Shown piece after piece: positions 16,265 to 47,597 of a stretch of 64,000 nt of DNA. The position numbers and the translations under genes are program-made. Within the stretch, counting starts at the first letter, position 1. Each line of letters starts with the position of its first letter. Source of the stretch: Chlamydiota bacterium. Its GTDB lineage: Bacteria > Chlamydiota > Chlamydiia > Chlamydiales > SM23-39. The stretch covers positions 10,172 through 74,171 of the forward strand of contig JBCAXK010000001.1 of NCBI GenBank assembly GCA_038534095.1, in the 5' to 3' direction. Below the pieces are notes generated by a model that saw nothing but the letters and a program-made list of their open reading frames with translations, was not told where the DNA came from and did not search any database.

Positions 16265-16898
16265 TTTTTTGAATGGGCGCAAAAGAAGTTCTATGCACCC
16301 CTGGAACAATCCCACTCATCTCAAGAGCTTCTTTGTGCTTTTTTGTCCCATAACCTTTGTGCTCATCAAACCTGTACTCGGGAGCAAAATTGTGGATTTG
16401 TTCCATGATCCAGTCTCTTCTCACCTTTGCAAGAATAGACGCTGCTGCGATGAGAGCGCTTCTTTTATCCCCTCCAATCACCATTTCTTGGTGCACCGAT
16501 GAAGGCAGGCCATGAGGTGGGTGTTTTCCATCAATCAATAGGCAATCTGGAGGCGTAAGAAGCGTATCGCAAGCCCTTTTCATTGCTAGAAAAGAGGCTT
16601 GATGAACGCCCATTTGGTCAAGAGTTTGTACATCGACAAGACCTATACCGAATTCTACTTGAAATGAAGAGACAAGCTGAAGATAGATCGAGTATCTTTG
16701 TTTCTCGGTCAAAGATTTTGAATCGTTGATTTGAGGGAGATAGAAGGAAGCGGGAAAAAGACAGATAGAGGCAACTACAGGCCCAGCAAAAGGACCTCTA
16801 CCCACCTCGTCTATACCCGCTACCCTTTGAAATCCTTTACGTCGAAAGGTTTCATCAAATTGATACAGCGAAGAACGAGTTTCTTCGAAAGGCATCAA
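16254..16898 (-). CDS. rnhB: ribonuclease HII
   Basis: GIDEVGRGPFAGPVV, DSKSLT, and the HKGYGTKKH region. Confidence 0.9.
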   Translation of the reverse strand: MMPFEETRSSLYQFDETFRRKGFQRVAGIDEVGRGPFAGPVVASICLFPASFYLPQINDSKSLTEKQRYSIYLQLVSSFQVEFGIGLVDVQTLDQMGVHQASFLAMKRACDTLLTPPDCLLIDGKHPPHGLPSSVHQEMVIGGDKRSALIAAASILAKVRRDWIMEQIHNFAPEYRFDEHKGYGTKKHKEALEMSGIVPGVHRTSFAPIQKIMK

Positions 16899-17311
16899 GA
16901 TTCTGAAGAAGTTTCTTCAGAAGGAGCTGTTTCTTTTGGCTCTTCTTTTACCTGCTTAACAGGTTTTTTGAAAAGACGCTCTTTTACTTTCGCTTTCTTC
17001 CCCTTCTTACCTCGAAGGTGATAGAGTTTGGCTCTCTTGGTTTTCCCTGCGCGCACCACCTCAATCTTCTGGATTTTGGGGCTGTGCAATAGAAAGAGCT
17101 TTTCCATGCTTGATCCGTAGGCGTGCCGGTACACGCAAAAGGCTTCGGACAGACCGCTTCCTTGCTTACCAATCACAATCCCTTCAAAGACTTGGATTCT
17201 TTCTTTGTTCCCTTCAATGATTCGGATATGTACACGAACAGTATCGCCTACACAAAAGGAAGGGAGATCCTTTTTCAGGTGTTCCTGTTCTATTTCTTCA
17301 ATAATGCTCAC
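16895..17311 (-). CDS. rplS: 50S ribosomal protein L19 with Lys-rich C-terminal tail
   Basis: FCVGDTVRVHIRIIEGNKERIQVFEGIVI... and YRHAYGSSMEKLFLLHSPKIQKIEVV. An extra tail reads KKGKKAKVKERLFKKPVKQVKEEPKE.... Confidence 0.95.
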   Translation of the reverse strand: MSIIEEIEQEHLKKDLPSFCVGDTVRVHIRIIEGNKERIQVFEGIVIGKQGSGLSEAFCVYRHAYGSSMEKLFLLHSPKIQKIEVVRAGKTKRAKLYHLRGKKGKKAKVKERLFKKPVKQVKEEPKETAPSEETSSES

Positions 17312-17314
17312 TAG

Positions 17315-18007
17315 TTACTCCTTTGTTTCCCAAAGATCTGGGCGCATTTCCCGTAGTTTTTTTCGCCCTTGCTCTTCTCTCCATTTCTGGATGTTTGCTT
17401 GGTGACCGCTTGTCAATATTTCTGGGACAAGACTCCCAGAAACATCTTGCGGTCTTGTATATTGTGGCCCTTCAAATAAAGAAGGGGCTCCCTTAGAAAA
17501 TGAATCAAAATAGGGCCCTTCCTGATTACCCAAAACCCCTGGTATAAATCTTGCAATTGCTTCAAGTAACACAATCGCAGGGGCGCATCCACTGGGTAAA
17601 ATATAATCGCCTATGCTAATTTCCTCATCAATTTCCTGATCGATGATTCTCTGATCAACCCCCTCATAATGTCCTGCAAGCAAAATGAGGTGGTCTTCTT
17701 GAGCAAGCTCTTCACATTTTTTTGCTGTCAGCAATCTCCCCTGAGGAGATAAAAAAATGGTTTTTGCTTTCTCTGTTCGCACGCTACGAATTGCTCGGAT
17801 ACAAGGTTCTGCCATCAGAACCATTCCAGGGCCCCCTCCAAAGGGGCGATCATCGACCCGATCGTGTTTATTCGAAGCAAAATCCCGAATATCTACCTGA
17901 TCAATGGTCAAGATTCCCTTCTCCTGAGCTTTTTTGATGATACTTACAGAAAAAGGACCAGAAAAATATTCAGGAAAAAGAGAGAGGATATGGAAGCGCT
18001 TAGGCAT
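17315..18007 (-). CDS. trmD: tRNA (guanine37-N1)-methyltransferase
   Basis: MPKRFHILSLFPEYF, DDRPFGGGPGMV, and GHYEGVDQR. I moved the start to the ATG at 18007. The track ORF up to 18112 would overlap rpsP by more than 100 nt. Confidence 0.9.
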   Translation of the reverse strand: MPKRFHILSLFPEYFSGPFSVSIIKKAQEKGILTIDQVDIRDFASNKHDRVDDRPFGGGPGMVLMAEPCIRAIRSVRTEKAKTIFLSPQGRLLTAKKCEELAQEDHLILLAGHYEGVDQRIIDQEIDEEISIGDYILPSGCAPAIVLLEAIARFIPGVLGNQEGPYFDSFSKGAPSLFEGPQYTRPQDVSGSLVPEILTSGHQANIQKWREEQGRKKLREMRPDLWETKE

Positions 18008-18326
18008 CTTCCTTGATCTGCTTCTCTTTTTTTCGCTGTTTTGCGCGCAGTTTTGCTGCTTGCTTTTTCTGAGCAAGCTCTTGCAAGACCGCAGGAGAAC
18101 TTCTTTTGACAAGGGCTTTTGCCTTATCAGAAATTTCGGCTCCTTGCTCTAGCCAGCGAGCGACTTTTTCTTCGTAAATACAAACATCTTGCTCTAAAGC
18201 AGGGTTGTACCAACCTAAAAGATCGATGTACGCTCCATCTCTTGGAGCCGTTTTTTTCATCACAACAAGACGGTAGGTCTGTCTATTTCTATTTCCTTGT
18301 TGTCTTAAACGAATAATCAATGCCAT
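18000..18326 (-). CDS. rpsP: 30S ribosomal protein S16 with Lys-rich tail
   Basis: MALIIRLRQQGNRNRQTYRLVV...DGAYIDLLGWYNP, then the tail ...KKQAAKLRAKQRKKEKQIKEDA. Confidence 0.95.
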   Translation of the reverse strand: MALIIRLRQQGNRNRQTYRLVVMKKTAPRDGAYIDLLGWYNPALEQDVCIYEEKVARWLEQGAEISDKAKALVKRSSPAVLQELAQKKQAAKLRAKQRKKEKQIKEDA

Positions 18327-19660
18327 TTCATTTTTCCCATGGTTTTTTGTAAATCGCGCAAACTGCCCATCTGCTTATTTTTAGGCATATTTTTGCACAT
18401 TTGTTTAATCCTTCCAAACCCTTTTACAGTTTGGTTGATGACCGAGACCGGCACTCCCGAGCCTTTTGCAATCCGCTCCTTTCTTTGGCGACATAGAGTC
18501 ACCTCCTCATTTCTTTCTTTGAGGGTCATAGAAAGGATCATCGCCTCGATTTGTCCTAATCGCTCATCTGATGTATCGATATCGGGCATATTTCCTGCGC
18601 CTGGCAACATACGAAGTAGACTTTTTAAAGAGCCCATCTTTTTGATGGCGCGCATTTGCGTTAAATAGTCGGCGTAGGTAAAGCGGGCTTTGCGGATTTT
18701 CTCCTCCATCGCCTTGCTTTCTTGCTCATCAAACAGATCTTCTGCATGCCTGACAAGATTCACGATATCTCCCATCCCCAAAATCCGGTCAGCCATCGAT
18801 TTTGGATGAAAGGGTTGTAGGTCCTGGATTTTCTCTCCAACGCCTTCAAATTTCAACGGTTTTTTCGTCTCCTCACGAATCGAAATAGCCGCGCCTGCTC
18901 GAGCATCTCCATCTAACATCGTTAAAATCGATCCGGTGATTTGCACCGTCTCGTTGAATGCTTTAGCCGTTTTGACAGCGTCCTGTCCTGTAGCTGCGCT
19001 AGCAACAAAGAGCACTTCCTGAGGGCGCGTGACCTTTTTGATCGCAAGCAACTCCTCCATTAAAGGCGCATCCACATGCAAGCGACCTGCCGTGTCAATA
19101 ATGACAACATCAAACTTTTCTCGAAAAGCAAAATCGAGCGCATTTTTTGCAACCTTGACAGGATCTTTGGCTTCTTTTTCTACAAACACAGAAAGATTGT
19201 GTTCCTCAGCCAGCCTTTCTAATTGCAAAATTGCGGCGGGTCTTTGCAAATCACAAGCGGCGATTAAAACCCGTTTTTTCTGTTTCTTCTGCAAAAAGTA
19301 GGCTAGTTTTGCTGCGTGGGTTGTTTTCCCCGCTCCCTGCAAACCACAAAGCATGATCGGAGAAGGCCTTTCCGAAAGCTGTAAAGAAGCCTCTTTCGAA
19401 CCCATCAAGGTTTGCAAGGCGTCGTGCACAATCTTTACAAATTGCTCTTTTGGTTTGACCGATTTAAGAAGAGCTTTCCCAAGAGCCTCTTCTTTGACCT
19501 GTTTGATGAATTTGCTCACAACAGAGTAGTTGACATCTGCGTCTAAAAGAGCCAAGCGAACAGAACGGATCGCTTCGGTGAGATTTTTCTCATTAAGGGT
19601 TTTCCCTTTACCCATGAAGGCAAAAGCTTCTTGAAATTTTTTAGTTAACGTCCGAAACAT
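18317..19660 (-). CDS. ffh: signal recognition particle protein Ffh
   Basis: GLQGAGKTT, DTAGRL, and a Met-rich M domain (MRAIKKMGSLKSLLRMLPG). Confidence 0.95.
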   Translation of the reverse strand: MFRTLTKKFQEAFAFMGKGKTLNEKNLTEAIRSVRLALLDADVNYSVVSKFIKQVKEEALGKALLKSVKPKEQFVKIVHDALQTLMGSKEASLQLSERPSPIMLCGLQGAGKTTHAAKLAYFLQKKQKKRVLIAACDLQRPAAILQLERLAEEHNLSVFVEKEAKDPVKVAKNALDFAFREKFDVVIIDTAGRLHVDAPLMEELLAIKKVTRPQEVLFVASAATGQDAVKTAKAFNETVQITGSILTMLDGDARAGAAISIREETKKPLKFEGVGEKIQDLQPFHPKSMADRILGMGDIVNLVRHAEDLFDEQESKAMEEKIRKARFTYADYLTQMRAIKKMGSLKSLLRMLPGAGNMPDIDTSDERLGQIEAMILSMTLKERNEEVTLCRQRKERIAKGSGVPVSVINQTVKGFGRIKQMCKNMPKNKQMGSLRDLQKTMGKMKWH

Positions 19661-34391: not shown

Positions 34392-35432
34392 ATGACGCTT
34401 TTTTTGTATTTGCTGCGGCTCTTTTTGTGCCGGTTTTTTTTGTGCTTTTTCAGCCTTTGCGCAGGTCTAATCGTTACAAGATTTACCTCTTTGCACCTGT
34501 TTTTTTCTTTAAACCCGAGCTGGAAGCTCTTTTTTACGTTTGTAGTTTACCAAACGGCGTATATTATTCCGATGGCTATTGCAGGTGCCAGCATGCTAGC
34601 ATCGATCCTATTCATGTTGCAACTAGAAGAAAGCGGACAAGGAATCGCCCTTCGCTCATCAGGACTCCCTTTCTTCTATCTTTTTTTTCCTCCTTTTCTT
34701 GTATCTCTTGTATTTTGTTCCCTCTGTTTTTTTGCAGGAGAGGTGGCAAGTGGGGCAAAGACGCATCAAAGAGGCCTTGTACAAGAGGCTGTGAAACACT
34801 CCCCTGCCGCATTACTCCGCTTGCAAATATTCCCTAACACCTCTCTCTGGTGGCAAAATGCTCCCTACCACCCGACGCTCCTGATAGGAGAAGAAAATGG
34901 GCAGGAATTTCTTCTATCGGGATCGATGGAATCTACCGCAAGCGCCATCAAAAGCGAGCGCCTTTCTTGGATTTCATGCAAAAACCAGCGTGGCACCCCC
35001 CCTTTTTTCCCTGAAATCCAGATTGATGCCTACGAAGATGCCTGCCTTGAGCTAAAAGCGCTCGCTCTACTCGAAAAACCTTCTCAAGAAAAACCAAGAT
35101 ACTTGCTTAGCAAAACCCTTTGGAAAAGGCGTTGTGGCGATGAGGCTCAAAAACATCTTCATGAACTTTTCCGCCGGATTTCTCTAAGCCTTTCTCCTTG
35201 CACCCTCACCTTTTTAGGGATGGCAATGATCCTTGGAATAGAACGGTTGCGGCGCCCCCCGGTTCTTGCGAAGGTGTTTGCCTGTTTTCTACTCTTTTTT
35301 CTGTTCTATTTTCTAGCAAAACTCTTCAAAGAAAGTGCTTTTCTTAGCTCCCTCTTTTTCTGCCTCAATCACCTTCTCCTTTTGGCTCTAGGGGCCGTTC
35401 ATTTACATCAGTATAGAAAGGGCTTACCATGA
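34392..35432 (+). CDS. lptF: LptF/LptG (YjgP/YjgQ) family permease
   Basis: Six-TM layout with a central periplasmic domain and a GIALRSSGLPF motif region. It is paired with a second family member through a 4-nt overlap. Confidence 0.7.
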   Translation: MTLFLYLLRLFLCRFFLCFFSLCAGLIVTRFTSLHLFFSLNPSWKLFFTFVVYQTAYIIPMAIAGASMLASILFMLQLEESGQGIALRSSGLPFFYLFFPPFLVSLVFCSLCFFAGEVASGAKTHQRGLVQEAVKHSPAALLRLQIFPNTSLWWQNAPYHPTLLIGEENGQEFLLSGSMESTASAIKSERLSWISCKNQRGTPPFFPEIQIDAYEDACLELKALALLEKPSQEKPRYLLSKTLWKRRCGDEAQKHLHELFRRISLSLSPCTLTFLGMAMILGIERLRRPPVLAKVFACFLLFFLFYFLAKLFKESAFLSSLFFCLNHLLLLALGAVHLHQYRKGLP

Positions 35433-36409
35433 ATCTTGCTCTTCGATGGATCTTTTGCCGATATTTTCTCTCTTGGCTTAGCTACTCCCTATGTTTAGTA
35501 GTATTTTATATGCTTGTAGAGCTCCTGCTGGCTTTCCCCCATACGCATGCTAGCGCTCCTACCACTACAGCGTTTGCGATCTTGGCCTTCCGCGCTCTTG
35601 AGCAAAGCCATCTTATTGCGATCATCGCATTTTATCTCAGTTTATTGACCATAGCAGCGCAAATAGAATCACAACAAGAATGGCTCCCCCTTGCGATCAG
35701 TGGCCTTACAAGAAAGCGGTTTTTTTTCCCCTCCCTTCTTTTAGCCTGTCTTTTGAGCCTGCTTTGCATGGTACACGAAGAGTACCTGCAGCCTTATGCT
35801 CATGAACAGCTCTGTTTTTGGGAAAAGAGGCCCCCTTCTCCAAACGCTCTTTACTTTGAAGATGCTAGCGCTCTTCTTTACGCAACCAAAAGCGACCAGA
35901 ATATCTATCGGGTCTATTGGATCAAAAATGACCAAGAACTGTGGCGTATGGAGCAATTCGACCTGCAGAAAAGAAGGGGCAACTTTGTCGATCATTTCGT
36001 AAAAAATGCAGAAGGACTTTTTGTAAAAAGCGGTTCTTGGGAACAACGATCTTTTCACGAAATGCCCCTTTTTACCTGTGGCAGAGGGGGCCTACGTACC
36101 TTATGTGAAGAGATTAGTTCTTTCGGCTATCCGACAAAACGTTCGATGAGGGGCGCTGGGGCTACCATTGCGGGGGGATGCTTTCCTCTTGTAGCCTCCC
36201 TTCTCCTTTTCCCTTTTTGCGCACGCTTTGAAGAGAAAACCTCAAGGAGAAAAGCAGGCCGGTACGGACTTGTGGGAGGGATTCTCCTCTATTTTGTACA
36301 AACAGCGCTACTAACCTGTATCCCCCTTTCGGAAAGCTTGTGGCTCACTTTTTCTCTTATCTACTTGAGCAGCTGGGGGATTGGGATTGGTTTATACTTA
36401 CGCGGCTAA
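35429..36409 (+). CDS. lptG: LptF/LptG (YjgP/YjgQ) family permease
   Basis: Same architecture as its neighbour, translationally coupled to it. From memory, the position next to tilS-ftsH matches chlamydial synteny. Confidence 0.65.
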   Translation: MNLALRWIFCRYFLSWLSYSLCLVVFYMLVELLLAFPHTHASAPTTTAFAILAFRALEQSHLIAIIAFYLSLLTIAAQIESQQEWLPLAISGLTRKRFFFPSLLLACLLSLLCMVHEEYLQPYAHEQLCFWEKRPPSPNALYFEDASALLYATKSDQNIYRVYWIKNDQELWRMEQFDLQKRRGNFVDHFVKNAEGLFVKSGSWEQRSFHEMPLFTCGRGGLRTLCEEISSFGYPTKRSMRGAGATIAGGCFPLVASLLLFPFCARFEEKTSRRKAGRYGLVGGILLYFVQTALLTCIPLSESLWLTFSLIYLSSWGIGIGLYLRG

Positions 36410-39400
36410 TTTCTGCGCTTAAAGCTTCTAGAGGGTTTTCATAATAGCGCTTTGGATTTTTTGTCACCCACATCCCATGCTCAGGCGAGTAATACCGATT
36501 TTTGTAATACACCTTATTCGAATAGGAATCTACGCGGGATGAAGCAAAGCGCCACGGATTGATCCAAGGCACATCGAGCACGTTGATTTCCTCACCAAAC
36601 AGGGTGAAGTTGGACTGCTCAACTAGCGCAAGATTTTCTCCAAGAAGACCTACGGTATTGCCAAAAAAATCTTGTAACGGGTAGTAGATTTCATCATAAA
36701 GCTCTAAACAGATCATACGAGGAAATGGACTCACATCTGGATTTTTTAGGACGCGCATTTCGACCAAAGAACCTTTTTGATAACGACCAATCTCTAGCTC
36801 CCCATCATAGAGAAACTGGGTATCATACTTCTTCTTCCAGTGGGTCTCATCGGGCTCAAATACGCTCATGCCAATCCTTCTATGATACCCGTCGTAATCG
36901 TAATGTATATTGAACTTGTCCTCAATCGCGTAGCAAATCAAACGGTCGAGCGCATCGTAGGTATACAAAATTGTTTTGTTCCCAAGAATTTCTGAACAAA
37001 GATTTCCATTTTTATCATAAATTAACTTAATTCTTGTTCCCTTTCCAATCTCTTGGTGATGCTCTTTTTCTCCGAGGTCCTGACCCCACAGTGGCTTGCG
37101 TATCCAGTCAGAATAGTCCTTAGACACAATGCCGCTCTCTTGTAAGGGATGCCCTAAAGGATCGTACAAGAAGAGATCTTCTTCTTTATGACCATAAATT
37201 GTGGTTTCAAGTGTTTCGATCGCTCCACTTGGACCGGTAGCTAGAATTTTTTGTCGAAACTTTTCTTGAGACTTTTCGATCAATCTACCACCCTGGTCAT
37301 ACTGGTATAGCGTATCAAAAGAGGAGCGCTCCCGAAGCACATTGCCTGCTAAATCATATTGCAAACACTGGTGTGAAAACACCTTTTCTCCATAATGATC
37401 ATAACGGGAAATAGAGCTGAGATAGATAGGATCGTATTTATACACAACGCGTGAGGTGTCGGGGAGGGAGATTTCTGTTTTTTGCCCCATCGAATTGTAA
37501 TCAAACTGCAAAAAAAGACCATTTTCTAATATCTCTTTTGCAAGGCGCCCTTCTCGATTATATACTCTCGCGGTTTTTTGCCCTGTGAGATGATCCTGAC
37601 AACCAAGAGACCTCCCATACGCATCGTAAAAGTACGTGTAATCAACAGTCCCATCAGAAGAGAAAAGACGCGTCAAGCGATCTTGAAAATCATAGTTCCT
37701 TGTAATCGCTACTCCATCGGGTTTAAACGTCTCAAACAACTTCCCTGTAGGTGTATAGGTGTAGTAATACTGCCGTTCTAATTCTGAATCAGCAAACTCA
37801 ATCAGGGATTGAATCTGATTCATCGTATTGTACTCATAGGCATTTTTGGTCACCCTTTTTTCTCCCATTGGAGTAAAGAGCGTTTCTGCATGCTCAATAA
37901 GATTGCCTCGAAAGTCGTAAAAATAGGCATCTTCTTCGAGAAGGCTCTCACCATGCCTTTTTTTGCTACTAACAAGACGTCCTAAAGCGTCGCGGAGTTC
38001 TACCACTTCGATTCCTGAAGGATTTTTCCTAGTCTGCTCTTCAAGAATAAGACCGTTTTCTAATTGATGCTTTTCATAGAAATAGTCGGTGCGTCTCCCT
38101 TCAGGGTCGATGGTATGGGTGAGCCTCAAAAATCCATCATAGGCTCTTGTTGTTAATGAAGGTGCATTATTAACGTAAGAAACGGTATTGATACAACAGT
38201 CCATTGGATCATACCGGTACGATTCTCGGAATAAAATCCGATTTCTTGGATAGTCTTCCTGGATAGACTTTTCGATCACCCTACCCAAAAAGTCCCTTGT
38301 ATATTCCTCATGAAACTGCGTTCCTGTATTATGATGCCGCACTTTTGTTAAACGCCCTAACGGATCGTACTCATAAAACTCGATATTTTGTCCCATTTTT
38401 TTCCCAACTTTTTTCCCCGAAAAATCGTAGGTATACAAAATAGGATTTCCCTCTTCATCTGTTTCTGACAAAAGGTGAAACGCGTCGTAGGTTTTTCGTC
38501 TTTCTTGTAAGACTTTTCCAGTAGGAGAAACGACTTGTTCCGATAAGCAGCGACCAAATCCATCGTATGCGTAACGGGTAACGACTCCTAAAGCATTGGT
38601 GATACTCTGCAACCGACCTGCTGAGTCATAGGTGCGTAGTTCTTTGGTTCCATCAGCATATTCTATTGAGGCCAATTGATCATCTAGCGTGTAGGTCATG
38701 GCCGTTTCTTGTTTTTTTTCAAACCACTCCTCGATCAATCGACCATAGGAATCATAATGGGAAGTATAGGTGGGCCTACGAACGACGCCACTTTTTGTGC
38801 TGACTGCAGGGGTAATGCGTTTCACCATCTGCCCAAGACGGTTATACTGATAATTCTCTACTTGGCCCAAGTAATTTTTCTTCTTGATCATCCTTCCTAA
38901 AAGATCGTAGGAAAAACGTTCATGGTGCGTTTCTTCTTCATCAGAAATGGTCTCTTTTAAGATCACCTGCCCTAACGAATTGAACGACCGTAACGTTTTC
39001 CTCTTCCCTTGAATCTCTTCTTCTCCGATCCTCCGATGATGCTCATCATGAAACACCATGTTTGCGTAAAGAGCATTTGACTCCCGTTTTAGAAGTCCCT
39101 TCTCATCGTAAGCAACCTTTTCTGCGTAGCAATATGCGCCCGTTGCGTCGTACACCGCTTTTTTGGTCACTTTTCCTAAATGGTTGTATTGAAACGTTTC
39201 TTTACCCGAAAAAACGTCCTGCTGGTTTTTAGCATCGTAGTACCAATGCTCTTTGATATCTACAATGCCAATAAAGGGCGCTTCCGTTCTCAAAAGATAT
39301 TTGGTGATCTGCCTCTGCGTAACTCCGTCTAAATCGTTTTTTGCAAAACTTTTCCCATCATCTACAATCTGAGCAATCCGTTGTCCATGGGCGTCGTATT

Positions 39401-41048
39401 CGTAAAAGGTTCTTCTAGAAAACTGCTTTTCTTTCTCTATCTTGGTTTGTAAAAGATTGGTACTGCTATCATAGTCATAAGCAATTTGCAAACCTGCACG
39501 CTTCTCTACAAGGAGTAAATTTTTTCCATCATCCGAATAGATTTTCCTATGAGAACGGGACTCAGCGTTGTTAGGATCAGGGAGCCGGTCATACAAGTAC
39601 ATGGGAGGCGCTTGCCCGGAAATATTTCCATATTCTCTCTTTTCTTGTACATTGCCTGCCTGATCGTAAAAATACCTTGTTGCTTTTAAACAGTTCCCTT
39701 CTGCGTCTACCCGGGCCTCTGCAAGAAGATACCGCAGTTTACGTAAGCTGCCTAAGCTCTTTTTTTGCTCACTTGTCAGGTGCATTTCTGCTGCAAGCCT
39801 ATTTAACGAAAATTTCGTATCCTCTCCCCAACAAAACAGATCTTTATGAGACAATATTTGTCGATCTGACTCTAAATAATAGTGTTCCACCGCATCTAAA
39901 CGCAAAAAGGGATCGTAACGGTAGACCGTTTTGTTTCCCTCAGCATCGTAGACGTCCGTGTGTCCTTCAGTTTTTCCATAATTGCCAGGATAATATTCAA
40001 AAGAGCGGAGAATTTGTACGGTTCCGTCGGGCATTTTCCTGGCCAAGCTAACAGCTTTTTTGTGTGTTTTACCTTTGCTTCTACTGTAACGGAGTGTGGT
40101 CACATCTCCATTTGGAAGAGTGCGCTCATGAATGAGCGCGGTGCCAGGATGATAGGTAAACGTCTTTTTCGGCTCTGTTGTGCTCACAATCGAATAAAGC
40201 TGCTTAGCTTCTGCATGTTTCGCGCGAAAGCTATAGGTGATGCTTTGTCCATCTGAGGTTTCTACTTGGACAATATCTTGCCCTTGCCCCCAAAAGTGGA
40301 AACGAATCCAAGCAAAGATGACCTCCCCTGTAGCGCTTTTGGACTGAATTTCACTCAAACGGATTGATCGAAGTGAGTCGTAGGTGTAACAAATACGGTT
40401 TTTATTCGGAAGGATCTCTTCTTCCAAACGGTACGTAAAAGCTTCTCTTTGCCCCGCATTTTCTACCGAATCGAGAACCCTTCGGTATCTTCTTATATGT
40501 CCAGACGGAGCAGTGATGGTAAATCCCGTCCCTTTGTAATCCATTTGCAACTGATTGTAACGCGTTGCGTAGTACTTAGAAGGCTTTTTATATCCGTAAT
40601 GGGCGAGATTGCGCAAAAAAACGACCGGGTCAACACAAAAATCTAAAATTTTTGATCCTTCTGATTTTCGTCGATACATATACTCTACAGGGATCAAATT
40701 CTTTTCTAAGACCTGGAGTCGCATGTTGTATTCGTGTGCTTTACGACCTAAAGCATTTTCCGGATGTTTCCAAGTGCTTTTTGCGAATAGATACTGATTG
40801 GCAAACCACCCTTGAAACACCTGTTCCTCATCAGAAAACGTACTGAAATGGCGCAAATCAAACTCGAGAGGCTCAGCTCCTTGCACAGTCACAAGTTCTT
40901 GCAAAACATAATCCCCTGTTATGGGATTGACGCATCCGTCCACCGCAAAATCAGCATCTTGCTGATACGCAGAAAAAAATGCGGGAGTGGGACAAGACGC
41001 AAAGAGGGTAAAAACAGAAAAAAGGGTACATAGGCATAAAACGCGCAT
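36357..41048 (-). CDS. YD/RHS-repeat protein (1563 aa) with signal peptide/possible lipobox and RHS core but no C-terminal toxin domain
   Basis: More than 30 YD repeats (YxYDxxGRL-like: YEYDPLGRLTKV, YAYDGFGRCLSE, YQYDQGGRLIEK and others). The N-terminus is MRVLCLCTLFSVFTLFASC. The RHS core end is NPWRFASSRVDSYSNKVYYKNRYYSPEHGMWVTKNP, followed by only about 31 aa. Confidence 0.9.
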   Translation of the reverse strand: MRVLCLCTLFSVFTLFASCPTPAFFSAYQQDADFAVDGCVNPITGDYVLQELVTVQGAEPLEFDLRHFSTFSDEEQVFQGWFANQYLFAKSTWKHPENALGRKAHEYNMRLQVLEKNLIPVEYMYRRKSEGSKILDFCVDPVVFLRNLAHYGYKKPSKYYATRYNQLQMDYKGTGFTITAPSGHIRRYRRVLDSVENAGQREAFTYRLEEEILPNKNRICYTYDSLRSIRLSEIQSKSATGEVIFAWIRFHFWGQGQDIVQVETSDGQSITYSFRAKHAEAKQLYSIVSTTEPKKTFTYHPGTALIHERTLPNGDVTTLRYSRSKGKTHKKAVSLARKMPDGTVQILRSFEYYPGNYGKTEGHTDVYDAEGNKTVYRYDPFLRLDAVEHYYLESDRQILSHKDLFCWGEDTKFSLNRLAAEMHLTSEQKKSLGSLRKLRYLLAEARVDAEGNCLKATRYFYDQAGNVQEKREYGNISGQAPPMYLYDRLPDPNNAESRSHRKIYSDDGKNLLLVEKRAGLQIAYDYDSSTNLLQTKIEKEKQFSRRTFYEYDAHGQRIAQIVDDGKSFAKNDLDGVTQRQITKYLLRTEAPFIGIVDIKEHWYYDAKNQQDVFSGKETFQYNHLGKVTKKAVYDATGAYCYAEKVAYDEKGLLKRESNALYANMVFHDEHHRRIGEEEIQGKRKTLRSFNSLGQVILKETISDEEETHHERFSYDLLGRMIKKKNYLGQVENYQYNRLGQMVKRITPAVSTKSGVVRRPTYTSHYDSYGRLIEEWFEKKQETAMTYTLDDQLASIEYADGTKELRTYDSAGRLQSITNALGVVTRYAYDGFGRCLSEQVVSPTGKVLQERRKTYDAFHLLSETDEEGNPILYTYDFSGKKVGKKMGQNIEFYEYDPLGRLTKVRHHNTGTQFHEEYTRDFLGRVIEKSIQEDYPRNRILFRESYRYDPMDCCINTVSYVNNAPSLTTRAYDGFLRLTHTIDPEGRRTDYFYEKHQLENGLILEEQTRKNPSGIEVVELRDALGRLVSSKKRHGESLLEEDAYFYDFRGNLIEHAETLFTPMGEKRVTKNAYEYNTMNQIQSLIEFADSELERQYYYTYTPTGKLFETFKPDGVAITRNYDFQDRLTRLFSSDGTVDYTYFYDAYGRSLGCQDHLTGQKTARVYNREGRLAKEILENGLFLQFDYNSMGQKTEISLPDTSRVVYKYDPIYLSSISRYDHYGEKVFSHQCLQYDLAGNVLRERSSFDTLYQYDQGGRLIEKSQEKFRQKILATGPSGAIETLETTIYGHKEEDLFLYDPLGHPLQESGIVSKDYSDWIRKPLWGQDLGEKEHHQEIGKGTRIKLIYDKNGNLCSEILGNKTILYTYDALDRLICYAIEDKFNIHYDYDGYHRRIGMSVFEPDETHWKKKYDTQFLYDGELEIGRYQKGSLVEMRVLKNPDVSPFPRMICLELYDEIYYPLQDFFGNTVGLLGENLALVEQSNFTLFGEEINVLDVPWINPWRFASSRVDSYSNKVYYKNRYYSPEHGMWVTKNPKRYYENPLEALSAEISRVSINQSQSPSCSSR

Positions 41049-41372: not shown

Positions 41373-41831
41373 TTAGAGGAGCTTCTTTCTTGATGGTGAA
41401 TCAGTGTCTCTTTCATTGCGCACTTTTCCGATTTCAAGATCAGGCTGACTAGCAACGCTGTTTTGGTTATCCCCCTTTTGAAAAGCCCCCTGACTAAATG
41501 ACGAAATGGCTCGAAGAAATAAAAGTATGCAGTCTGCGTAAATCAGGACTTTTGAGAAGATATGGAACACTTCCAATACGCCCCTAGACAGCAAAAGATA
41601 CCAGCTCGTCTTATTTTGATTAGCGATTTCTGCAAGCAAGTGATATACGGAAAAAACTAGGCGAGCTATCCCCACGATCCATTTGATACAAGGGAGATGA
41701 GAAAGAGCGTTTCCAATGTTGATAAAGACCCTGCGATGGTTTTTCTCAAGAGGATCGAAAGAACTACTTAGACCATAAAATCCGTGAAAATAGGTCCACT
41801 CACTAAAAGACTGTTGTACATGAAACGGCAA
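41373..41831 (-). CDS. hypothetical membrane protein (152 aa)
   Basis: Hydrophobic segments IKWIVGIARLVFSVYHLLAEI and VLIYADCILLFLRAISSF. No motif. It lies upstream of the RHS gene on the same strand. Confidence 0.4.
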   Translation of the reverse strand: MPFHVQQSFSEWTYFHGFYGLSSSFDPLEKNHRRVFINIGNALSHLPCIKWIVGIARLVFSVYHLLAEIANQNKTSWYLLLSRGVLEVFHIFSKVLIYADCILLFLRAISSFSQGAFQKGDNQNSVASQPDLEIGKVRNERDTDSPSRKKLL

Positions 41832-42451
41832 TCAAACTGCCCCTTAGTTGGTATCGTATTTTCAAGAATCTTATTATAGTTGGGTCATTTGCTCAAGAAA
41901 TTTTGCGTAGCAAGCCCCCTCTTTTTCGAAAAAACCGTTGCAGCGGGAATAGGTTGTTTGGATTCCCGAAATATTTGCGCAAAGAATTGCAAAAACAGAA
42001 TCGATTGCCCACAAAATCACCCCGCATCAAAGCCTTTTGCCCTTTTATGCCCGAAGATGTAGCTGCATTAAGGCTATCTACGGACGGTTGTTCCCACTTG
42101 TGCTTGTGCTGTCTTTCGGCTCTCTTACTGGTAGACTGTAGCATAGAACGATCTTGCAGAAGGCAAAAACTTTTTGAGAAAAAATGCGAAGAAAAAAACA
42201 ATGCTTGGATCTTTGTAAAAAATAGAAGAGAATAATTTTTGAAAAAATATTCTTCAGCGCCTATTTAGGAGCAGATCGAATCGCTTGAGGGAACCTCGGC
42301 ACACTTAAAGCCAAGATTCTTCGAAGCTTCCTTGCTATTATGAATCAGGGAATGTTTTCTTAGCCTACCTTCGCTGATCCTACTTTAAGTAGAACTGCCT
42401 AGTTGCTGGATGTTTGTAAATCTTATATCGTATTCAAAAAGGAACGTATGT

Positions 42452-43537
42452 ATGGACATTTTCGTTGTTTTTCTTTTCATCATCAATTCTTTATGGTGTT
42501 TTGAAAACATTTCCCCTCCCTACATCGAGGAGCTAGGTCAGAGCGCATGGTATCAAAATGAACAGATAGATTCTGATCAATACGCAGATCTACCCGAAGC
42601 GCTTATTGCCCCAGGCCGTTTCTTGCACATCTCTGCTGAAGGTCGCTTTCTCTACTGGGAGGCGCGTGAGGAAGGGTTAGCCCTCGGAAAAATCAAACCG
42701 AGTCAAAAAAGCCTCGACAATGAAGTACTCCAACAAGATTACGCTTTCAAACCAGGCTTCAATCTATCCCTGATGTTCCAGTTGAGTCGTAGCAATTGGG
42801 ATACAACTTTTTCGTATACACAGTTTGACTCTATGATCCATACAAAAATACAGGGAAAAAATACGGAGGTGATTCTTTCTCCTTTTTTTGATCCTATTAT
42901 CGAACTCGAGCGACTTGAATCTGATTGGACACTAAAACTCACTCTTTTAGACACAGAACTTGGAAAAACCTGCTTTTTGGGTGAGCACTTTTTCTATAGA
43001 CCCTTCATCGGCCTACGCTTCTATTTGCTCAACCAAAAACTTTTTTTAGATGGTTATCCGTTTCCTGTAGGGCTCTTTATGAATCCCGCATTAGCAAGCG
43101 TCACATTCTATTCACAAACAGCCAACCACTGGTCCCGATCTCATTCTCTTGGTCCCCGGGTAGGGACAGATTTGGACTTTCTTTTGGGTTACGGGCTGCA
43201 AGCCCATTGCAACGTCGCTTCCTCTATTGTCTATTTTAACTACGACGCCTCTGCCCAACGATCGATCGATCTTGAAGAAGACATAGAAACAAAAATCACG
43301 ATAAACAATGACGCTTTTCTGAGAGCTCTTAGCGAAATTTCTACAGGACTTTCCTTTGGAGGACATCTATTTCACGAGCAATTGTACGTAGATGTTGGGA
43401 TCTTTTTTGACGCAAAAGTATTTTCTGGACACAATCCATTTTCCGATTTGCTGCGCAACCTTTCCAATCAGATCAATGGGTATTACGGCAATCTCTACTT
43501 TTGGGGACTATCTTGCGCTCTTCGATCAGAATTTTAA
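42452..43537 (+). CDS. MOMP-like outer-membrane beta-barrel protein (Legionella-type major OMP family)
   Basis: I chose the start at the ATG at 42452, which has AAGGAA 9 nt upstream; the track start is 42410. The signal peptide is MDIFVVFLFIINSLWC. Family hallmarks are ISAEGRFLYWEAREEGLAL, YAFKPGFNLSL...W.TTFSYTQF, W.L.LLDTELGK...YRPFIGLRF, and GPRVG. The C-terminus ends in F (ALRSEF). Confidence 0.75.
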   Translation: MDIFVVFLFIINSLWCFENISPPYIEELGQSAWYQNEQIDSDQYADLPEALIAPGRFLHISAEGRFLYWEAREEGLALGKIKPSQKSLDNEVLQQDYAFKPGFNLSLMFQLSRSNWDTTFSYTQFDSMIHTKIQGKNTEVILSPFFDPIIELERLESDWTLKLTLLDTELGKTCFLGEHFFYRPFIGLRFYLLNQKLFLDGYPFPVGLFMNPALASVTFYSQTANHWSRSHSLGPRVGTDLDFLLGYGLQAHCNVASSIVYFNYDASAQRSIDLEEDIETKITINNDAFLRALSEISTGLSFGGHLFHEQLYVDVGIFFDAKVFSGHNPFSDLLRNLSNQINGYYGNLYFWGLSCALRSEF

Positions 43538-43552
43538 TTAGGCTACGTATTT

Positions 43553-44383
43553 GTGAGGCATTTGTACTATTTTTCTCTGTTTTTCCTCCCCTTTTCTATA
43601 GAAGCCATCCAGCAAGTTTCTTTAGAGATTGGATACGCGCATACAGACTGTTCTTTTGGGTTTTCTCAGACCTTGTTTCAACAAATTGAAGAGGATTGGC
43701 ATGATGTAAGTAGCGTAATTACTGGTTTAGAGTACTCTTATAAAGAGCCAGACTACATCGAATCAAGAACAGCTGTTACTTACAGCAATACGCTCTCTGA
43801 TCATGGCTCTTGCTTCTTAAAAACAGGATTGCCTGAGGAAGCTAGCGCCACTTTTTCTCACAAGCTCCGAGGATACAGCTATAGCCTCGAGGAGAGGCTT
43901 GGATACCCCTTTCGCTTAGGAGCTATTTACTGGTCTCCACTTGCTGGCTTCTTTTTTGAATCGATTTGCTGGAAGCGCAAAAATCTTTCGAAAAAGATGT
44001 CGAGCGCAGGTACATTCTTTCCCCAGAAACGTATTCACGTGCGCAACATCATGCCACTTGTGGGCTTAAACGTATCGTATCAGCCATGGAGAAGCGCTTC
44101 TTTCCTCATCGATGGATCCTACGCTTATCAATTTGGTGCGATGCGACTAGAATCTTCCTATGAAAGAAACGGCAACACTACCAAAGAAAAGGTGGAAGAG
44201 TTTTCAGGGATTCATGATGCAACAATTCGGGGACTGCTGCGCATCAGTCATTATGCCTATATTGGAATTGCAGGAAGTTACCGAAAGCAAAAAGCGAAAG
44301 AGAAAACTCTTTCGCGAGGAAAATTTACAGGAATGACAAGAGAGGTGCTTGCCATAAAAACAAGCCTCTCGTTTGTGTTTTAA
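43553..44383 (+). CDS. putative outer-membrane beta-barrel protein (276 aa)
   Basis: GTG start. The signal peptide is MRHLYYFSLFFLPFSIEA. Aromatic/hydrophilic residues alternate, and the C-terminus is ...LSFVF (terminal Phe). Confidence 0.55.
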   Translation: MRHLYYFSLFFLPFSIEAIQQVSLEIGYAHTDCSFGFSQTLFQQIEEDWHDVSSVITGLEYSYKEPDYIESRTAVTYSNTLSDHGSCFLKTGLPEEASATFSHKLRGYSYSLEERLGYPFRLGAIYWSPLAGFFFESICWKRKNLSKKMSSAGTFFPQKRIHVRNIMPLVGLNVSYQPWRSASFLIDGSYAYQFGAMRLESSYERNGNTTKEKVEEFSGIHDATIRGLLRISHYAYIGIAGSYRKQKAKEKTLSRGKFTGMTREVLAIKTSLSFVF

Positions 44384-46751: not shown

Positions 46752-47597
46752 TCAACAGGAATGTCTCGAAAAGATTACGTGAACTATGCGCTCATCAGTC
46801 GTTGTACTACGTTGAGCCTGCGGCGAAGAAGGTATTCCGTATTCAGTCCTAGACGGAGAACTGGAAACCAGCTTCAACTGAGGTGCGACGTATTGAGCAC
46901 CAGGTTGAGGATTGAGAGCCAATGCCAAAGGAATTGTAGAATGTCCAGCGATAGGTTGAGGATTTGGAGGCAGTGTCAACTGATGTGTAGGATATTGAGT
47001 CATACCCTGAGTACACGGACATTGAGAGGTGGGATGTTGAGCGATAGGTTGACGATTGGAATTAGATCCTAAAAGATCGGGATCAGGTTCTAACTCAGGC
47101 ATTTCATCGTAATTTTCCTCGGTAGAGAGGAGGGCTGTATTTTGCTGCTTTTGAGTAGTAACTAGACTCTTCGAAGCTCTAGGATCAGCTTCTAAAGCAG
47201 ACATGCCATGGGATTTTTGCGTGGAAGGAACTGAGGATGTTTTTTCCTCCTGTTTATTAGTCGTTGGATCGGTTCTTGTCCGTTTGTTGGGTTGTTCTTC
47301 GCTTTTTGAAACACCTGATTGCTTGTTTGCGAAGTAGGCTTCTGTACCATCAGACAAGCGGAACGACCGTTTTTTTATTATTAAGGCAGGGCGGTATCGG
47401 TGTAAGCCGAAATGTAGAATTGTTTCTATTTTTCGAGCTTGTCTTAACATCTCCGGATTTGTGGGTCCGTGCAGTGCCGATGCGATGTCTAGATCAGAAT
47501 CTTTCGCTAGATTAGTCGGAACACTCATGGGCATAGTCTCTCTAGGAGTAGTTTGGTAATAATTTGTATTGAGATGGATAGGGGGGGTGGAACTCAT
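46752..47597 (-). CDS. low-complexity P/Q/T-rich protein; N-terminal module paralogous to the 1081-aa ankyrin protein
   Basis: I prefer the start at the ATG at 47597 (MSSTPPIH...) because it matches MSSIPPFR... of the gene at 53708. The track start is 47633. Shared pieces are GPTNPEMLRQARKIE versus GNPTDYVTVRQTAREIE, and KRTRTD versus KRRRTD. The C-terminus has degenerate N(R/P)QP(I/G)A(Q/G)(H/Y) repeats. Confidence 0.6.
   Translation of the reverse strand: MSSTPPIHLNTNYYQTTPRETMPMSVPTNLAKDSDLDIASALHGPTNPEMLRQARKIETILHFGLHRYRPALIIKKRSFRLSDGTEAYFANKQSGVSKSEEQPNKRTRTDPTTNKQEEKTSSVPSTQKSHGMSALEADPRASKSLVTTQKQQNTALLSTEENYDEMPELEPDPDLLGSNSNRQPIAQHPTSQCPCTQGMTQYPTHQLTLPPNPQPIAGHSTIPLALALNPQPGAQYVAPQLKLVSSSPSRTEYGIPSSPQAQRSTTTDERIVHVIFSRHSC

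Follow-up and report, generated by a model that had tools for sequence, protein, structure and literature searches.

Can the shell of an RHS protein still be of use to a bacterium once its toxin is gone? RHS cocoons are understood as single-use containers that hide a toxin and release it by means of a built-in aspartyl protease. A gene that raises this question lies in a 64,000-nucleotide stretch of DNA from a Chlamydiota bacterium (GenBank assembly GCA_038534095.1, contig JBCAXK010000001.1, positions 10,172 to 74,171 of the forward strand), the whole of which is referred to here as the window. The gene encodes a giant RHS/YD-repeat protein that stops partway through the RHS-associated core, with no toxin tip and no immunity gene. 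The best reading of the evidence, held with a probability of roughly 0.55, is that the protein is a Sec-exported, uncleaved and essentially empty cocoon that has been reused for a non-toxin role.

The protein scored 163.8 bits against the Pfam RHS_repeat family (PF05593, cut-off 22 bits) and 117.4 bits against TIGR01643 (cut-off 15.8 bits), which places it in both families. It contains 35 YD dipeptides where 7.4 are expected from its composition. An initial annotation, made from the DNA letters without database searches, had described a giant protein with more than 30 YD repeats, and this description of the 1563-amino acid (aa) product was accurate. The NCBIfam equivalog model of the RHS element core protein (NF041261) requires 2000 bits and gave 70.1 bits, leaving the window protein outside that equivalog. 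A search of 5.8 billion protein clusters identified an identical protein, P0001, recorded as a hypothetical protein from a Chlamydiota metagenome-assembled genome (MAG).

AlphaFold2 models were calculated in two overlapping pieces, aa 1–640 (predicted local distance difference test (pLDDT) = 88.0, predicted TM-score (pTM) = 0.86) and aa 364–1563 (pLDDT = 87.5, pTM = 0.79). From aa 47 on, the models consist almost entirely of β-hairpins. Low confidence is limited to the signal peptide (pLDDT < 50 for aa 1–17), a loop at aa 1318–1338, and the C-terminal tail (pLDDT < 50 for aa 1542–1563). A Foldseek search of the PDB returned 8qjd_B as the best match (E = 5e-43, TMt = 0.62). Rhs cocoons belonging to type VI secretion systems (T6SS) came first, with Tse15, Tre23 and RhsP, and were followed by a bacterial teneurin-like protein, TcB-TcC complexes, teneurins, and the mosquito protein SGS1. 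The repeats are thus predicted to form a large and complete Rhs cocoon. The shell may be closed and essentially empty.

Only about 165 residues stand ahead of the YD repeats in the models. Beyond the signal peptide, they form a cap region that runs from a short helix through an invariant DGC-x-x-x-ITGD motif (aa 37–46) and β-strands to two helices at aa 141–164. The region is common to the four orthologues described below and to toxin-bearing chlamydial RHS proteins, and two of its residues, G45 and W81, are conserved in at least 90% of 45 aligned sequences. By analogy with RhsA (PMC8765631), the cap region may be the plug that closes the shell. Foldseek searches with the N-terminal model gave generic cocoon matches with low TM-scores that do not distinguish the type of plug.

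The other end of the protein is where it departs from its relatives. The C-terminal region that is conserved in solved RHS proteins winds inward to seal the cocoon at one end, and in Tc toxins and RhsA it contains the protease (PMC8765631). In the window protein, TIGR03696 (Rhs_assc_core) matches aa 1483–1533 only, corresponding to profile positions 3–51 of 76, with a score of 24.3 bits that is below the 32.5-bit cut-off for a full core. A 62-position hidden Markov model (HMM) built from 119 canonical cores matches over positions 1–42 only. The stretch that remains (aa 1483–1536) is modelled with a pLDDT of about 90. The core end reads NPWRFASS...RYYSPEHGMWVTKNP, with 31 residues after TKNP. 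The recognisable core end followed by only some 31 residues that the initial annotation had reported is therefore confirmed, with the added detail that the core match is partial.

The consequences for self-cleavage were considered by placing the catalytic residues on the window protein by motif alignment. In solved RHS proteins, the two autoprotease Asp residues are approximately 22–24 residues apart and are accompanied by a conserved Arg. The role of the first Asp is one that we take from TccC3 D651 and Tse15 D1369 (paired with D1391), as they are named in PDB entry titles, and from BiTLP D2116 (paired with D2140; PMC13018210). In an alignment of 45 RHS proteins, Asp makes up at least 90% of its column. 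At this position, the window protein has Asn (Asn1531), the P0002 orthologue has Gly, and the P0003 and P0004 orthologues have Asp. The conserved Arg is present in the window protein as R1518. The second catalytic Asp and the cleavage site fall in the missing part of the core in all four proteins. No DPxGL or distal-core motif was found in any of the six frames of the whole 64-kb window.

The same ending is found in three other orthologues (1562, 1550 and 1576 aa), identified in the protein cluster search, that are 42–46% identical to the window protein; the four are pairwise 36–46% identical. The next tier of relatives, which includes named Protochlamydia and Neochlamydia RHS proteins, is longer (1677–1822 aa) and 25–28% identical. 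In a C-terminal alignment, the four short proteins share NPWRF...Y.P..G.W.T..P.R[FY]Y and then diverge, with W1527, T1529, P1532, R1534 and Y1536 invariant among them. The longer relatives go on with GPNLYAYV.N.P....D..GL and then 150–330 further residues. Compared to 41 canonical relatives, the deletions in the short proteins lie solely after about aa 1540.

The rarity of this ending was assessed by scoring the core HMM on 265 collected RHS homologues. A match was found in 258, and 250 reach the end of the core and continue for a median of 260 further residues. All four orthologues stop at HMM positions 41–44. Four partial core matches remain. The cores of P0014, P0024 and P0178 break at differing points and run into unrelated sequence, and these proteins look frameshifted and decaying; P0084 has a weak core match with 343 aa beyond it. 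Other relatives with short C-termini were considered as further toxin-less RHS proteins and rejected, since the distal core is still present in P0149, P0207, P0216 and P0219 and is kept in P0178 except for its last six positions. These five look like contig-end fragments or frameshifts. An exhaustive HMMER search with the C-terminal 224 aa against 1.84 billion representative proteins returned only the four orthologues at 215–515 bits, and the next match was at 142 bits.

The polynucleotide phosphorylase (PNPase) of the three other lineages is 76–80% identical to that of the window, and no PNPase from other chlamydiae exceeds 70% identity. Given this gap, the four lineages are regarded as a distinct, uncultured group. 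The initial annotation had allowed that orthologues might reveal the window copy as recently truncated. The orthologues are not longer, and the break point is the same in all four. The shortening is not recent, and one ancestral loss is the simplest account.

The gene has a fixed downstream boundary in all orthologous loci, formed by a convergent pair of LptF/LptG-family genes. The nearer of the two overlaps the end of the RHS gene by exactly 53 nucleotides (nt); it is called lptG from gene order only, as it scores far below the cut-off of the NCBIfam LptG equivalog. The initial annotation had argued from this overlap that there is no room for a toxin or immunity cassette. The overlap is exact and an LptF/LptG-family neighbour is present in four of four lineages, in agreement with that argument. 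The convergent overlap (36357..36409 in the window) recurs at the junctions in L001, L003 and L004, and its length in the four lineages is 53, 56, 25 and 107 nt. No cognate immunity gene lies directly downstream on the same strand in any of the four lineages, the place being taken by the convergent gene. The last 53 nt of the RHS gene are antisense to the 3' end of lptG. Since the tail is whatever the antisense strand of lptG encodes up to a stop codon, it is not conserved: the 27 residues beyond the conserved end of the window protein are disordered, and the tails of the four orthologues (14–40 residues) cannot be aligned.

A toxin domain was sought with Pfam at E ≤ 10 in the first 661 aa and the last 194 aa, and nothing relevant was found beyond RHS_repeat. 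At this threshold the N-terminal piece also matched Taeniidae_ag and the C-terminal piece 2-thiour_desulf, both of which were discarded as noise. The absence of a DPxGL-type motif and of a variable C-terminal toxin, both noted in the initial annotation, is upheld by this result and by the six-frame scan. The same annotation had considered a match of either end to a known toxin or cleavage domain, and none emerged; as a sequence query against the PDB, the last 194 aa match fly teneurin-m best. Relatives that bear toxins have a homologous N-terminal region, which is therefore not a substitute cargo in the window protein. By descent, the window protein is one of the Sec-type RHS polymorphic toxins of chlamydiae, but it lacks what defines them: the complete core, the autoprotease, the variable toxin, and the immunity gene.

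Despite these losses, the gene appears to be maintained. At 36–46% protein identity, synonymous sites are saturated and dN/dS is unsuitable, and so protein identity was compared with that of neighbouring genes. Averaged over all pairs of the four lineages, identity is 41% for the RHS protein, compared with 28% for LptG, 33% for LptF, 38% for TilS, 38% and 35% for the first and second outer-membrane proteins encoded next to it, 68% for RpsI, and 76% for FtsH. Approximately 250 residues are invariant in the four RHS orthologues, among which are many Tyr, Asp and Gly residues of the repeats, and the conserved stretch extends right up to R1534 and Y1536. An open 4.7-kb frame that is better conserved than the essential LptF, LptG and TilS is therefore not that of a decaying gene. 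The pattern of conservation indicates that the RHS gene is under purifying selection.

The setting of the gene is also conserved. In five independent assemblies (NCBI, ENA, Logan, GTDB representatives), the order is rplM-rpsI, two outer-membrane-protein-like genes, a small open reading frame (ORF), the RHS gene, convergent lptG and lptF, tilS, and ftsH. The nearest outgroup contig retrieved (L013, chlamydial MAG GCA_964609715.1, PNPase 69% identical) has the order pnp-ftsH-tilS-lptF-lptG. There, at 16325..19574, a Legionella_OMP gene follows lptG at a distance of 23 nt and in the same orientation, and no RHS gene separates the two. From this empty site, the RHS gene (with the small ORF where present) is taken to be an insertion in the ancestor of the group.

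The reading of the protein as a reused cocoon may be put in terms of the following steps. Environmental chlamydiae have Sec-dependent RHS polymorphic toxins, from which the protein would descend. Its gene would have sat, in the ancestor shared by the group, between lptG and the gene for a porin-like outer-membrane protein. At that site, everything past the proximal half of the core would have been lost, and with it the second Asp, the site of cleavage, the toxin and, if there was one, the immunity gene. What was left over would be the signal peptide, the cap region, a complete YD shell, the part of the plug that spirals inward, and a short unconstrained tail. The protein would be exported by Sec, and its gene would have been passed on vertically under purifying selection. 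With no self-cleavage and no payload, there would therefore be no toxin delivery, and the closed, essentially empty shell may itself be the functional unit. Its role may be that of a scaffold or of a module for binding, either within the envelope of the chlamydiae or where they meet the host, just as an uncleaved and empty YD shell is reused by teneurins. Such a role would fit the position of the gene beside outer-membrane and lipopolysaccharide-transport genes.

Several points weigh against this reading. All four lineages are known from metagenome assemblies only. The first Asp is kept in two of them, which gives a small chance of residual chemistry. Conservation, for its part, attests to constraint and says nothing of its purpose. 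The initial annotation had proposed either an empty YD shell or a decayed polymorphic toxin. The former is supported with respect to architecture and evolution, since toxin, immunity gene and cleavage site are missing, the truncation is shared, the gene is conserved, and a cocoon fold is predicted. The latter is right about ancestry, as the closest relatives are chlamydial RHS proteins that carry toxins, and wrong if a pseudogene or a loss of recent date is meant.

The N-terminus admits a different view of how the protein is held at the cell surface. Its first 21 residues are the only hydrophobic segment anywhere in the protein, with no further membrane segment. A hydrophobic N-terminal segment exceeds the set threshold in three of the four orthologues; that of the fourth is hydrophobic but below the threshold. 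In the window copy, LFASC fits a PROSITE-type lipobox rule with Cys19 as the lipidated residue. The protein could then be a surface adhesin, processed by lipoprotein signal peptidase at LFAS/C and tethered by lipid to the outer membrane. The gene does adjoin two outer-membrane protein genes, and chlamydial RHS proteins are listed among outer-membrane proteins predicted in silico (PMC2811131). However, none of the three other orthologues has a Cys in the signal region, making the lipobox pattern unique to the window copy among the four, and for this reason lipidation cannot be the conserved mode of localisation. The Sec signal appears to be the conserved feature and lipidation a feature that is not conserved; only in the window copy could there be a lipid anchor. 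Of the Sec/lipoprotein signal proposed in the initial annotation, both the hydrophobic segment and the lipobox fit were borne out, the latter for this one copy. A lipid-anchored surface adhesin is unlikely.

It is also conceivable that the locus is still a toxin system, in which the payload is the peptide of the tail, a segment at the N-terminus or within the protein, or the product of a separate gene that the shell is loaded with or carries. The shell fold is predicted to be intact, a putative export signal is present, and the first Asp is retained in two lineages. Two further elements could be regarded as candidates. The first is a 24-aa insertion in which AlphaFold2 places helices at aa 415–421 and 426–431; in the alignment it is the sole insertion of at least 8 residues that sets the four orthologues apart from the 41 canonical relatives. 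The second is the small co-oriented ORF directly upstream of the RHS gene. Besides the window, two of the other lineages have it, with homologues at the equivalent site (L003, 9426–9854, and L004, 2294–2767; phmmer E of 1e-6 to 1e-15). The product may be a small membrane protein, perhaps Inc-like, and it is uncertain whether it belongs with the RHS gene. No homologue of it was found in the P0002 lineage or beside the canonical RHS genes examined. We know of no RHS protein that is loaded in trans. The tails are short, unalignable, disordered, and antisense to lptG, the N-terminal region has toxin-bearing homologues and so holds no replacement cargo, and Pfam detected no toxin family at the two ends. 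Taken together, a surviving toxin system appears quite unlikely.

A related idea dispenses with the toxin and keeps the partner. The cocoon might be a cage or docking module for something supplied in trans, either a host molecule or a separate chlamydial protein such as the product of the upstream small ORF. This is rather improbable. If true, it would be the first RHS shell to work without a cargo encoded in cis and a bacterial parallel to the step from a toxin to the teneurin receptor.

That the gene is a non-functional relic, a decaying toxin gene without its tip that is open by chance or has had too little time to degrade, is more doubtful still. Toxin, cleavage site and immunity gene are gone, the tail is junk read-through into lptG, and truly broken RHS genes do occur in other chlamydiae (P0014, P0024, P0178). 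In contrast to those scattered singleton frameshifts, the four orthologues have a common break point. The 4.7-kb frame is intact in lineages whose PNPase is only 76–80% identical, and the protein is better conserved than the essential LptF, LptG and TilS that flank it. An artefact of assembly or annotation, either a chimeric contig or a frameshift that hides the true C-terminus, would be conceivable in a MAG and can practically be dismissed, since the same end and the same neighbours recur in independent assemblies, the downstream DNA is an intact convergent gene, and a distal-core motif is present in no frame of the window.

The reading as an empty, reused cocoon therefore remains the preferred one, and the features on which it is based are collected in Table 1.

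Table 1. Features of the RHS gene and its neighbours, in window positions; residue numbers are those of the RHS protein.
Feature	Position	Strand	Basis
RHS/YD-repeat ORF, 1563 aa, ATG start	36357..41048	-	ORF list
N-terminal hydrophobic segment (aa 1-21), read as Sec signal peptide	40986..41048	-	Hydropathy
N-terminal cap region (aa 22-165)	40554..40985	-	Conservation and AlphaFold2 secondary structure
YD-repeat shell body (about aa 166-1440), almost all β-hairpins	36729..40553	-	AlphaFold2 and Foldseek
Group-specific 24-aa insertion (aa 412-435, KFSLNRLAAEMHLTSEQKKSLGSL), two short helices predicted	39744..39815	-	Alignment, AlphaFold2
Proximal half of RHS-associated core (aa 1483-1536), ending W-x-T-x-x-P-x-R-x-Y	36441..36602	-	TIGR03696 partial match, home-made HMM
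Asn1531 codon, in the alignment column of the first catalytic Asp (RHS aspartyl autoprotease)	36456..36458	-	Alignment
Non-conserved C-terminal tail (aa 1537-1563 and stop codon)	36357..36440	-	Orthologue alignment
LptF/LptG-family permease gene, convergent with the RHS gene	34392..35432	+	Pfam PF03739, 80.3 bits
LptF/LptG-family permease gene, convergent with the RHS gene (lptG)	35429..36409	+	Pfam PF03739, 42.3 bits
Small 152-aa ORF immediately upstream of the RHS gene, with 1–2 hydrophobic segments	41373..41831	-	Hydropathy; no Pfam match
Outer-membrane-protein-like gene 1, porin-like	42410..43537	+	Legionella_OMP family, 61 bits
Outer-membrane-protein-like gene 2	43553..44383	+	Weak autotransporter β-domain match, E 0.044

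Both outer-membrane-protein-like genes adjoin the RHS gene in all four lineages. The remainder of the window is made up of housekeeping genes (metG, ffh, trmD, prmC, pnp, ligA, hflX, dapA and others), and Rfam identified a single tRNA. A promoter scan around the RHS gene performed no better than on shuffled sequence, and a terminator scan was uninformative. Amid the housekeeping genes is a 1081-aa ORF (53708..56953, + strand) with no Pfam family at E ≤ 1e-5. Two further ORFs of 293 and 312 aa (46752..47633 and 51278..52216, both on the - strand) have no Pfam match; the latter, flanked by ligA and a gene for a MiaB-like radical-SAM protein, has counterparts without annotation at the equivalent site in L001 and L003. 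Elsewhere, in L007 (5476..13059), a canonical Parachlamydiales RHS gene is apparently split into ORFs of 1197 and 629 aa. It is followed by four tandem ORFs of 169–188 aa on the same strand that, unlike the window locus, resemble an array of immunity genes or orphan cassettes.

Among known systems, the nearest relatives are the Sec-dependent RHS toxins of chlamydiae, such as the plasmid-encoded Rhs of P. naegleriophila (P0007) and a Neochlamydia protein (P0009), which are 25–28% identical over 85–98% of the length. This class of polymorphic toxin has been described in environmental chlamydiae (PMC3482391). The window protein shares with it a signal-peptide-like N-terminus, the DGC-VN-ITGD region, the length of the shell, and the proximal core NPWRF...RYY.P..G.W. 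The toxins, unlike the four orthologues, continue through GPNLYAYV.N.P....D..GL into a variable toxin of 150–330 aa. At the two canonical chlamydial RHS loci that were examined, small ORFs lie downstream on the same strand; these are missing from the four orthologues, which occupy a fixed site in the core genome.

The best structural matches are the T6SS Rhs cocoons of Salmonella bongori (Rhs core, 8QJD), P. protegens RhsA (7Q97), Tse15 (8UXT), Tre23 (7PQ5) and RhsP (8H8B), with E-values of 1e-37 to 5e-43. These effectors are also the best sequence-profile matches in the PDB, and they have a closed YD cocoon with a C-terminal plug directed inward, to which the shell of the window protein would correspond. 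They differ in that their N-termini are linked to PAAR or VgrG, that their two-Asp autoprotease is active, and that a toxin is enclosed (PMC8765631), where the window protein has a putative Sec signal, no protease, and no toxin. BiTLP (9IFO, 9PT5), a secreted bacterial YD-shell protein, is among both the structural and the sequence matches. It differs in keeping both catalytic Asp residues (D2116, D2140) alongside the Arg (R2103), in being cleaved, and in hiding a toxic C-terminal domain for which there are immunity proteins (PMC13018210).

The BC cocoons of Tc toxins have the same cocoon fold as the window model. According to its entry title, 6H6G is an engineered TcdB2-TccC3 without the hypervariable region; a cargo-free cocoon can thus be solved as a structure, in this case one that is man-made and not natural. 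A Tc cocoon is formed by two proteins, has a β-propeller gate, docks onto TcA, and contains an active protease. Pfam detected neither a TcB-type β-propeller gate nor SpvB/TcB N-terminal domains in the window protein, and there is no TcA partner among the housekeeping genes of the window. The mosquito salivary gland surface protein SGS1 (8FJP), which was among the structural matches, is an example of an Rhs/YD shell outside the classical setting of toxin and immunity. It is unlike the window protein in being eukaryotic, approximately 2900 aa long, and equipped with extra domains. We take SGS1 to have arisen by reuse of a bacterial gene.

A natural toxin-less bacterial RHS cocoon was not described in the literature that was searched, which is a weak negative; the search did find chlamydial RHS toxins and predicted RHS outer-membrane proteins. 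The known natural exception to the single-use container is eukaryotic. In teneurins, the C-terminal YD plug is uncleaved and the cocoon has been described as empty and scaffolding (PMC8765631), and the catalytic motif is absent from the mammalian proteins (PMC13018210). A bacterial counterpart of this step had been unclear. Here, a bacterial RHS protein appears to have lost its toxin, cleavage site and immunity gene, taken up a position in the core genome, and been kept under selection for a long time.

Teneurins resemble the window protein in outcome, an uncleaved and empty shell, and not through shared descent of the loss. As eukaryotic membrane receptors, they possess an FN-plug, an NHL β-propeller and, on the outside, a Tox-GHH remnant. 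None of these was detected in the window protein; Pfam at E ≤ 10 identified no FN-plug, NHL β-propeller or TTR domain in the N-terminal 661 aa. TM-scores of the Foldseek alignments with teneurins are low, as would be expected if only the shell matches. The case is limited to four uncultured lineages, for which it adds a candidate envelope or host-interface protein to a poorly known part of the chlamydiae. If the shell alone is functional, the window protein would offer a simple natural system without extra domains in which to ask what a YD cocoon does by itself.

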